Of a stretch of DNA of 64,000 nucleotides, positions 15,001-18,000 are shown in pieces. Made by a program: the position numbers. The stretch comes from Escherichia coli O157:H7. GTDB lineage: Bacteria > Pseudomonadota > Gammaproteobacteria > Enterobacterales > Enterobacteriaceae. The DNA lies in NCBI RefSeq assembly GCF_013167455.1, contig NZ_CP038328.1; one strand, written 5' to 3'. Each line of letters begins with the position of its first letter. Positions within the stretch are counted from its first letter, which is position 1.

Positions 15001-18000
15001 CAGCCAGAGCCCGGCGCTGCTCCCTGGCTGCCGCAGCAGCCTGACGTCCGCCATTCTGCAGGGTCCGGTAATATTCACTGCCCATACGGGACGCCCGCTG
15101 GATCTCCGACTGGAATGACTGTGAATTTGCCGAAATTTTGATAATCAGTTCACGTAACGTCGCCATTCACCTTTCTCCGGGCGTAAAAAAACCGCCTCAG
15201 CGGTTCTCATCATTCATGACTGTGCTGCAAGGCTCAGCGCGTCTTCCAGCGCCGCAAACGGATCCACCTCCGGCTTATCCTCATCCTCGCCCCAGCAGAG
15301 CATGGCGTCCTTCAGTGCAACATTCATCCCCTGTGCCCCGAAAACCGCTTTCACGATCTGTGCATTACGGATATCCCCGCGCTCATCACCCAGCGGGGAT
15401 ATCCTGTCGAACTCCATCCACATCATCGCCTCGCTCGCACTCAGGCTGTGGCGCAGTTCGGATAAGGTGCGCCCCAGACGGAGCGCAAGTCGCATCAGAA
15501 AGCGAATTTCCGGGCGGGCTACTTTTTTCTGGCCGACTCTGCATCAGCGATCAGTTCCAGTGCCTGACGCAGCAACCGGGCATGTACCGGACCATAGACG
15601 GCCAGCACCTGCTCACGGTCGTCCGGAGTGAACACCCGCTGCAGGTCCGTATCACACAGGACATCGCAGAACAGCGTCACATCCGCTTCCAGGTTACGGC
15701 GGGTTTTCGCCACCACCGACAGGGTATCGTCATCCTCTCCATCACCATTGAGCACTTCCTGCCACAGATACCAGGCCTCTGCCGAAGGCTCCCGCAGCAC
15801 CACGCTGACATTACCCCATTCCGGCACCTTCACCGTTTTATGACGAAACCCTGACAGTCTGGCCAGCGCCAGCGTTTTCAGATCCTTTTTCATGATGACC
15901 CATCCCCTTATCCGGCGGCAGCGCTCACTGTCACGGTGCATTCAACAGACGTCACACTCTGTGCTTTCTCTGCCGAATCGGTCACCACACAGGTATATTT
16001 CCCCGCATCAGCGGACTGCGCACCTGGCTTACTGAAGGTGTCTGTCGTCTGCCCGTCAACCGGCTGACCATCCTTCTTCCAGGCGTATTTATACGGCGGC
16101 GTTCCCCCGTTGGCACTGACTGACATTGTCAGCAGCGCACCGGTATTCACGGTAAGTGTCTTATCCAGATTTTTCACAAACGCCAGCGGTACCACAAAGG
16201 ACACCGGTTTGCCTTTCAGACGCAGTGAGAACGTTGCAGCCACCACGCCGTTGGTACCGGATGACCAGGTGTGCTGGCGCACTTCCGCCAGGAATTTAAA
16301 GCCCTTACCGGACGGAAACAGCACCTTAAACGCATACAACGCGTCATTGTCATAGGCATCACGCAGGGCGTTCTGGGCCTGATTCAGATAAAAATTGCCC
16401 GACATGGAAATCTCAGACGACGCCCCCAGACCATTGATGTTCTCCTGCTCTGTGGAGCAGAGCGTGGTCACATCAATATCCTGTTTCTGCCCGGCGGTGA
16501 ACTGCACTTCCTTGATGGTGCAGTCCAGGCGCAGATATTCCGCCTTATCCATAGTTTCAGCAGTCGCCGGGGCAGATGAAATCATCACCTGCGTCAGCTG
16601 TGAGCGTTCATACAAAGCAGACATTCTGCCTCCTGATAATAAAAAACCCGCACGCGGCGGGGTATGGGTTTTGTAGAAAAAAGAAAAAGTCACACCGTGA
16701 CCTGAAACTCCAGGGTTGCACGGTAACAGCGGTTTTCCGGAATATAGTCCTGCATTTCACTGACGGATCCCGGGGCCAGCAGCATTATGGCTTCACGGGC
16801 GTCCTGACGTATCTGACGCGCCTGCGTCACAGTCCCGGCATAAACGTCTATCTGCACCGACACTGAGGACTCCGCCTGCCCGCCCATCACGTCCGCTGAC
16901 ACCGATGAAATCAGGCTGAAAACCACCCACGGAAGCGCCACCGACGGCCTGCCATCCAGCAGGGGGACCACATACGGGTACACCTGCCCGCCGGCAAGAT
17001 GCGCCAGATGAGGATACAAATCCGCCTCCGTCATCGTCTCAGTACCTCATCAATGGCCCGGTTCATCCGCGCAATCGCCACCTGTGCCGCCTGTTCACTG
17101 CGCACATCAAATGCCGGGCGCACAAACGGGTGCGGTGGCATATTCACGGTCCCCATTTCCACAAACCGCCAGTAGAAAGCATTGCGCGGGTTATCCGCCT
17201 TCATGGTGTTATCGCTGTTACCGGTGTCCGGATTAACACCCCGGATATGCACACCGGATTCCATCCCGCCATCGCGGGAGCACCGGGAAAGGACCACCAC
17301 ATTGCGGCGAAGTTTTCCCCTGCGTACCGGTGCCCGTGACACCACTTCTTCTTTCAGCACATTCGCACCCGCACGGGTTGCCTCACGCAGCACCCGGTTA
17401 TTTTCTGCACCACTCAGAAGCTGCAAATCGCGGCTGATGTCCTCCAGCCCCGAAAAATCCAGCAGGGTTTCGATCATTTTTCCCCTCCCAGCCGACAGAG
17501 AATTTCCAGACGTCCGCCGGTCGCATCCGGCACGGTCACGCCAGGGACCACTCAGCACATGAAGTCGTGACGCTGCCGTGATTTCCCGACCGGACTGACC
17601 GCGCACCCAGATGCGGATTTCCGCCTGCGCCATTTCCGCACCGGACTGCATCCGCTCCCGGCTGCTCCTGCCCCGGATATCCGCATGAATTTTCCCGCAT
17701 GACACCCATTCTTCCGTCATTTCTCCGGCAGCGTTACGGGTTAACACCGGGTTCAGAACACTTATCATCTGTGTCAGACGACCTGCAGATATTGCCATTC
17801 CCCCTCCTCATAACACCGTCGGACAACGCAAATCGTAAATCAGCACGGAAACAGAAAACGGCAGCTCCCCCTGAATCAGTTCTTCCCGCTCCGCAAGATC
17901 CGGATTCCGGTACAGCATCCCGGTCAGTCGCATGGCAGCCCCCTTCATCCGGGTTAATGCCTCGCCCGGGATCAGTTCACCGTCCTCACGAATCACCTTA

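Follow-up and report, generated by a model that had tools for sequence, protein, structure and literature searches.

The window analysed here, 64,000 nucleotides (nt) of Escherichia coli O157:H7 DNA (contig NZ_CP038328.1, assembly GCF_013167455.1), carries a defective lambdoid prophage, in whose late operon a small hairpin with a run of U on its 3' side stands between the genes of the tail-terminator protein and the major tail protein. This hairpin is probably an intrinsic (Rho-independent) terminator lying within the operon, one at which unmodified RNA polymerase would stop and which polymerase modified by the antitermination protein Q would read through. Its anatomy, the adjacency of the U-run to its stem, the exclusively sense orientation of hairpins of its kind in the late region, and its co-occurrence with a Q-type antiterminator all fit that assignment.

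Anatomy and position of the hairpin

On the minus (coding) strand, CCCGC (16661-16657) pairs with GCGGG (16651-16647) across the loop CGCGU (16656-16652), giving a stem-loop of five G:C pairs and five loop nucleotides at 16647-16661 that comes out of direct reading of the sequence, of a terminator scan and of folding. UUUUUU (16646-16641) abuts the stem on its 3' side and is followed by AUUAUC; the plus strand of 16641-16662 reads aaaaaa-cccgc-acgcg-gcggg-g. The preliminary description of this DNA had placed a coding-strand hairpin with U6 between the two tail genes, and both the reading and the scan bear it out. The scan enters the hairpin with a five-pair, all-G:C stem, a 5-nt loop and the tail TTTTTTATTA; the U-rich tail UUUUUUAUUAU extends over 16636-16646 on the minus strand.

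Intrinsic terminators have a G+C-rich stem with a short loop, a U-rich tract of some 7-9 nt abutting that stem, and a place outside coding sequence on the sense strand. The stem and loop are of this kind, toward the weak end of the usual range: ViennaRNA gives -8.5 kcal/mol for the hairpin in its context and -7.5 kcal/mol for the bare stem-loop. The tract is UUUUUUAUU, with a tail score of -5.56, and the whole element occupies a 65-nt gap (16625-16689) of the late operon, on its sense strand.

All of the genes around the hairpin are on the minus strand. The upstream gene (16690-17034) encodes a 114-amino acid (aa) protein of the Tail_completion_gp17 family (PF11367) that is 48% identical to HK97 gp11; matching records label it 'tail terminator' or 'tail completion protein gp17'. 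Its stop codon is 29 nt from the stem. On the other side, 12 nt after the stem, comes the Shine-Dalgarno (SD) sequence AGGAGG of the major tail gene (16629-16634), then CAGA and the ATG at 16624-16622. The 238-aa major tail (tube) protein encoded by that gene (15908-16624) has tail-tube domains and a C-terminal Ig-like domain.

Two minor features of the junction may be recorded here. The T-rich spacer at 16662-16689 (minus strand), CTTTTTCTTTTTTCTAC, varies among near-identical prophages (IMG/VR loci L022-L101) in the lengths of its T-runs and in one C of its AAAACCC. A weak hairpin with a T-rich tail, AGGTCAC-GGT-GTGACTT (16687-16703, minus strand), overlaps the tail-terminator gene's stop codon; it is disrupted in the Sakai prophage Sp6 and was set aside as probably incidental.

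Terminator motifs in the late region

A permissive terminator scan reveals no overall enrichment, with 22 observed sites against 18.1 ± 4.4 expected. The outcome is different for a strict motif, defined as a perfect Watson-Crick stem of at least five pairs, at least four of them G:C, with a loop of 3-6 nt and a tail that starts with TTT and scores -4.8 or lower. Searching both strands of the late region (7126-33300, about 26 kb) for it yields six matches on the sense strand (at 22902, 16661, 15204, 10882, 9200 and 8322) and none on the antisense strand. In 300 dinucleotide shuffles of that region, the mean number of strict matches is 0.017 and the maximum 1. The hairpin at 16647-16661 is not a product of chance. 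Five of the six strict sites are in short intergenic gaps, and the contention of the preliminary description that the late operon is punctuated by terminator hairpins holds good for these six sense sites, which include both of the companion hairpins that it had cited (these are taken up further on, with one reservation).

Conservation of the hairpin

The gap that follows the gp11-like gene was collected from 80 IMG/VR contigs, 10 genomes of other genera, 11 phage records and the genomes of Sakai and enteropathogenic E. coli (EPEC) E2348/69, yielding 30 distinct versions. (The best 80 IMG/VR loci are all 98-100% relatives that contribute micro-variants only; the diversity comes from the phage collection and from a scan of GTDB genomes.) The set spans E. 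coli prophages, HK97-like phages, Superficieibacter, Kluyvera, Enterobacter, Citrobacter, Silvania, Leclercia, Yersinia, Klebsiella, Proteus and Halomonas phages, and the identity of the flanking protein falls to 34% across it.

Every one of the 30 versions has a GC hairpin followed by a T-run. The stems lie between -7 and -16 kcal/mol, with the exception of that of L046, a single-locus variant with a 4-pair stem at -4.2 kcal/mol. The U-run directly abuts the stem in 29 of the 30; in the remaining version, from Kluyvera (L013), a single A intervenes. The distance from the end of the hairpin is 9-13 nt to the SD sequence of the major tail gene and 18-23 nt to its start codon throughout. In contrast, the spacer from the upstream stop codon varies between 14 and 31 nt and cannot be aligned, and there are 13 loop sequences, several of them of the UNCG type.

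The stem sequences drift with distance. They are GACCGCC/GGCGGUU in Klebsiella phages (flanking protein 46-48% identical), AAAGCCACC/GGUGGUUUU in Proteus phage Pm34 (45%) and CCCGCC/GGCGGG in a Halomonas phage (34%) that is itself lambdoid in layout, with an antitermination gene preceding a lysis-structural operon. The Proteus stem contains a compensatory change, CCACC/GGUGG where others have CCGCC/GGCGG. In a MAFFT alignment of 18 versions, 88% of cells are paired, compared with 37-57% when the partner is slid; two stem pairs have changed on both sides, one of them being C:G in nine versions and A:U in six. The covariation score is 0.170, compared with 0.109 for shuffled alignments, and 2 of 500 shuffles attained it. 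This alignment understates pairing, since it shifts the Yersinia and Proteus rows by one column although their own stems are perfect.

The window's own version is the commonest in E. coli prophages, yet it is the weakest. Its stem has only five pairs because a C replaces the A of Sakai Sp6, whose stem has seven. Rare variants turn up in near-identical prophages: L046, already referred to, weakens the stem, L053 alters the loop, and L049 and L061 turn the SD sequence into AGGCGG.

One phage, Evi (L008; LR597642, 1045-1110), seemed to lack the element because its annotated major-tail start, an upstream ATG 8 nt after the preceding gene, engulfs the hairpin. The Evi sequence has the hairpin, the U-run, the SD sequence and the downstream ATG, and on this reading of it the annotated start is probably wrong.

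Counterparts in HK97 and other phages

The element is not new. In the HK97 record (AF069529), positions 6692-6719, between genes 11 and 12 (the latter encoding the major tail subunit), are marked as a 'putative terminator', and six further putative terminators are annotated in the HK97 late operon: four of them precede the protease and tape-measure genes, I and J, and two follow the capsid and major tail genes. A 'rho-independent terminator' is annotated at the same position in HK542 (JQ086373) and mEp234 (NC_019715). On the evidence of sequence and gene order, the window hairpin is identified as the positional orthologue of the HK97 gene 11/12 putative terminator: it has the same place between the gp11-like and major tail genes, and its structure is kept while its sequence drifts. 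A late operon punctuated by hairpins is thus the documented picture for HK97-type phages.

The likeness extends to the details. In HK97, HK542 and mEp234, as in the window, the element follows the gp11-like gene and directly precedes the major-tail SD sequence on the same strand, and it consists of a G:C stem, a short loop and an abutting U-run; the flanking genes are homologous (48-63% identity for the upstream protein), and the major tail proteins of HK97 and the window both begin MSALYE. The differences from HK97 are that its stem has nine pairs (-15.5 kcal/mol) as against five (about -8 kcal/mol) in the window, that its loop is AGAU instead of CGCGU, that the window's spacer to the upstream stop codon is longer and T-rich, and that HK97 is a viable phage and the window's O157 prophage a defective one. 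The hairpin is unannotated in O157, Shiga toxin (Stx)-phage and EPEC records.

Terminators within late operons are common in lambdoid phages, but their roles, in the words of a paper on phage L, 'are not known' (10.1101/2020.10.05.325894). Two possibilities are offered there: partial termination, and the halting of transcription that has not been antiterminated. The predicted terminator that ends the procapsid module of phage L and P22 resembles the window hairpin in lying within an operon that is served by a single Q-type antiterminated promoter; it differs in belonging to a P22-like podovirus and in its position, and it is likewise a prediction. A second comparison is with tR' of lambdoid and Stx phages, also an intrinsic terminator that Q-modified polymerase reads through. 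However, tR' lies a few hundred nt from the late promoter, is itself the switch and generates an abundant short RNA (6S RNA or StxS), whereas the window hairpin is 16.6 kb downstream of Q and the candidate late promoter and has no known product.

What the hairpin may do

Because a gene of the lambda Q family is located upstream of the late-operon hairpins on the same strand, their being read through by Q-modified polymerase would be the natural expectation. The Q gene (33245-34066, minus strand; PF03589, E = 7.8e-49) is 16.6 kb upstream of the hairpin under discussion, and the genes from Q to the hairpin are nearly all co-directional. The same read-through is implicit in the GenBank annotations of HK97, HK542 and mEp234.

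From these arrangements we infer termination, Q-dependent read-through and a purpose along the following lines. The structural genes may be entered by unmodified polymerase that did not start at the Q-loaded late promoter, for example through spurious initiation, read-in or transcription in the lysogen. Having transcribed the G:C stem, such a polymerase would pause on the U6-rich tract and free its RNA some 7-9 nt after the stem, before it came to the major tail gene's strong ribosome-binding site. Polymerase that had taken up Q at the late promoter, 16.6 kb upstream, would be terminator-resistant and would pass through. (Lambda's Q-loaded polymerase resists intrinsic terminators over long distances.) Since Q-loaded polymerase would read through it, the element should cost nothing in lytic growth. 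The hairpin would persist in the long late mRNA and may there hinder decay of the RNA as well.

The abutting U-run favours a terminator, which needs it, over a hairpin that merely stabilizes RNA, which does not. Expression data offer only an anecdote: in RNA-seq of the EPEC E2348/69 lysogen, the 345-nt upstream gene has a mean count of 9.16 and the 717-nt major tail gene one of 4.46, which comes to an approximately 4-fold lower read density past the hairpin, at counts that are too low to weigh. Term-seq data for Sakai exist (the GEO accession is cited in PMC7547250).

A number of considerations weigh against a terminator at this place. With only five pairs in its stem (about -8 kcal/mol), the window hairpin may be a weak one; the efficiency of termination at the five-pair version is probably modest. 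To place a terminator directly before the gene for the most-needed tail protein runs against intuition if read-through is anything short of essentially complete. The stem's constant distance of 18-23 nt from the start codon, like the merging of U-run into SD sequence, would suit a role in translation or mRNA stability equally well. Most of the stems share a CCGC/GCGG core, so that their conservation could partly reflect common descent instead of independent selection. Finally, searches of the literature for late terminators of the HK97 type that had been mapped by experiment turned up none.

The last but two of these points leads to the best of the alternatives, which we nevertheless consider unlikely: that the hairpin belongs to an expression cassette for the major tail gene. 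It might serve as a 5' barrier to decay once an endonuclease has cut the U/A-rich spacer, or it might insulate the ribosome-binding site and so leave it unpaired, with the U-rich run acting as an S1-binding translational enhancer, and the effect would be to raise the output of major tail protein over that of the low-copy neck proteins. The spacing is suggestive: in all 30 versions the stem stays 9-13 nt from the SD sequence and 18-23 nt from the ATG, whereas its distance from the stop codon ranges over 14-31 nt. So is the recurrence of the hairpin-U-run-SD layout before the protease-capsid, tape-measure and K genes in the window, and so is the presence of putative terminators on both sides of the HK97 capsid module and of the HK97 major tail gene, as segmental mRNA stabilization predicts. 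Nevertheless, in gaps of 50-65 nt compaction alone may set the spacing, a U-tract of 8-9 nt being followed by the SD sequence; a stabilizer or insulator has no need of a U-run abutting the stem, yet the U-run abuts it in 29 of the 30 versions; and in the window there is no hairpin 3' of the major tail gene, where the gap is 14 nt. Slightly more doubtful still is the stronger form of this proposal, in which the hairpin-U-run-SD module is not primarily a terminator but a conserved cis-acting expression element behind the high output of the major tail gene, with sister copies for capsid and tape measure. It has been framed as working through a protected, processed 5' end together with a U-rich, S1-binding platform 18-23 nt from the start codon. 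Were this so, differences of expression within the HK97-type late operon would stem partly from segmental mRNA stability and translation, and not from initiation signals alone.

Returning to termination, the preliminary description had spoken of an 'attenuator', a term that we do not retain. There is no leader peptide or leader open reading frame (ORF), no sensor and no conserved competing pairing, and Rfam at the gathering threshold has no match at the hairpin. The 121-nt region around the hairpin folds no better than its shuffles (z = -0.66). A terminating ribosome cannot occlude the stem, because the upstream stop codon is 29 nt away. The only alternative fold, AAAACCC/GGGUUUU, is slightly more stable (-9.9 kcal/mol) than the hairpin (-8.5 kcal/mol); it was considered as an antiterminator and rejected, its upstream A/C-rich segment not being conserved in the other versions of the gap.

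Attenuation in a looser sense, with a fixed fraction of polymerases stopping in lytic growth even with Q, and tail transcripts lowered relative to head transcripts, is improbable. Partial termination is among the roles contemplated in the phage L paper (10.1101/2020.10.05.325894), and the weak stem would suit a leaky terminator. The step down would nevertheless be in the wrong direction, the next gene being needed in far more copies than those that precede it; Q-loaded polymerase withstands intrinsic terminators over long distances; and the hairpin has neither a sensor nor an alternative structure. The argument from dosage is a general one: siphovirus tails require their major tail protein in far more copies than the products of the upstream genes.

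Nor is there much to be said for the hairpin as a by-product of mosaic evolution, a shared recombination 'linker', without a function in itself, where head-neck modules meet tail-tube modules. Similar hairpins do follow gp11-like genes that precede different types of major tail protein (156 aa in HK542, 234-238 aa in HK97). However, compensatory and indel changes have left stem pairing and U-run intact where loop and spacer vary freely; this speaks for selection on structure and not on identity of sequence, and a stem of 5-9 bp offers little homology for recombination. We regard this reading as very improbable.

Least credible of all is that the hairpin terminates a small RNA, bound by Hfq and originating in the 3' end of the tail-terminator gene, in the manner of the Pas or EcOnc RNAs: a hairpin with a U-run is an Hfq-binding module, and the structural regions of prophages in EPEC and enterohaemorrhagic E. 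coli (EHEC) do encode such RNAs (PasB, among tail genes, is an example), but E2348C_1428/1429, the identical locus of E2348/69, is not among the listed interactions found by RIL-seq (sequencing of interacting RNAs after their ligation) and has only background RNA-seq counts, and neither an Rfam family match at the hairpin locus nor a promoter-like site nearby was found. (An Hfq screen in EHEC left out sense sites less than 100 nt from genes and is uninformative for this hairpin.) PasB itself, which a 2026 preprint describes as embedded among structural genes of phages that match the window, was examined as the hairpin's RNA and rejected. Like the window hairpin, it is found among tail genes of related prophages and ends in a hairpin and U-run; unlike it, PasB maps to 1466343-1466261 of E2348/69 (minus strand), antisense between tail genes I and J, its sequence is unrelated to that of the window hairpin, and its probe sequence is absent from the window. 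Among the EcOnc RNAs listed for EHEC, the Sp6 entry EcOnc33 maps near the esterase gene.

Elements of this kind may insulate the silent structural genes of a prophage from stray transcription, or may tune the stoichiometry of late gene products. The silencing of such genes is also relevant to the way in which O157 can carry many near-identical defective prophages at little cost. In practice the gain is small: the window hairpin and its five sister sites, currently unannotated, can be annotated as intra-operon terminators in the tail modules of O157 prophages and Stx phages. Of some general interest is the comparative result, that the element keeps its exact position in all of the relatives examined, which range from E. 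coli to Halomonas.

The sister hairpins

The first of the two companions cited in the preliminary description, at 22879-22903, is real. It consists of the hairpin GAACCGC-UGCG-GCGGUUU (22904-22887, minus strand) and a T-run, the whole spanning 22879-22904 between the genes of the large terminase and the protease-capsid fusion and running into the SD sequence of the latter. A near-copy, GAACCGC-UGAG-GCGGUUU with its U-run (15184-15206, minus strand), lies between the tail chaperone G/T and tape-measure genes. The sequences at 15184-15206 and 22882-22904 (minus strand) are one 23-nt cassette, GAACCGCTG[A/C]GGCGGTTTTTTTA, differing by one loop base. No match to it was found in 100 shuffles, and the shared sequence may represent a terminator cassette that has been duplicated or converted.

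Two more hairpins of the terminator type are on the minus strand farther downstream, one with U6 directly 3' of minor tail gene L (10866-10883) and the other, with its U-run, after ant and directly before the SD sequence of the K-like (C40 peptidase) tail gene (9184-9201). After the major tail gene of the window there is no hairpin in the 14-nt gap.

The second companion, cited at 8300-8326, is where the reservation applies. The hairpin is real (AACCGGAG-UCC-GGCUCCGGUU, 8324-8304), but it is not a simple punctuation mark of the late operon, being bidirectional, with T-runs on both strands, and lying within what is left of tail-assembly gene I, on the edge of the nleL cassette. It sits where homology to intact phages and to E2348/69 ends (at about 8337), just upstream of nleL/espX7, and its sequence setting makes it look like a terminator at the boundary of the effector cassette.

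The prophage and its late promoter region

The window is 99.9% identical to a prophage that adjoins potC in E. coli O157:H7, and its homologue in Sakai is prophage Sp6. The structural module shares 98.6% identity with the Stx2c phage 2851, and the same pair of tail-terminator and major tail genes is found in prophage PP6 of EPEC E2348/69. It is a defective prophage: gene I is truncated, and the effector gene nleL/espX7 takes the place of the tail tip gene J. In addition, a 26-nt deletion at about 17535/17536, relative to O157 strain ECP19-598, fuses the head-closure and HK97-gp10-like frames into a 255-aa ORF (17798-17031). Relative to Sakai Sp6 and phage 2851, the deletion is implied by their annotated ORF sizes; it is another sign of the decay of this prophage copy.

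A candidate late promoter, TTGATT-16-TAAATT with a TGn element (33239-33212, minus strand), begins 6 nt past the Q stop codon; it was read from the sequence and falls below the threshold of the promoter scan. One hairpin at 33211-33195 and a second at 33164-33147, the latter with U7 (a candidate tR'), lie 3' of it on the same strand. No Q-binding element was identified. The unit as a whole (33147-33239) looks, from these motifs, like a late promoter and terminator, a very short pR'-tR' unit, and by analogy could give rise to a small RNA comparable to lambda 6S or StxS.

Elsewhere in the window, three RNA families are matched at their Rfam gathering scores: STnc100, a relative of the PasD small RNAs, at 32307-32473 (minus strand), upstream of the sialate esterase gene; the sok antitoxin RNA at 36097-36271 (minus strand), adjoining hokD; and sar RNA at 10100-10166 (plus strand), within an arc/ant insert that resembles P22 immI and separates tail genes L and K.

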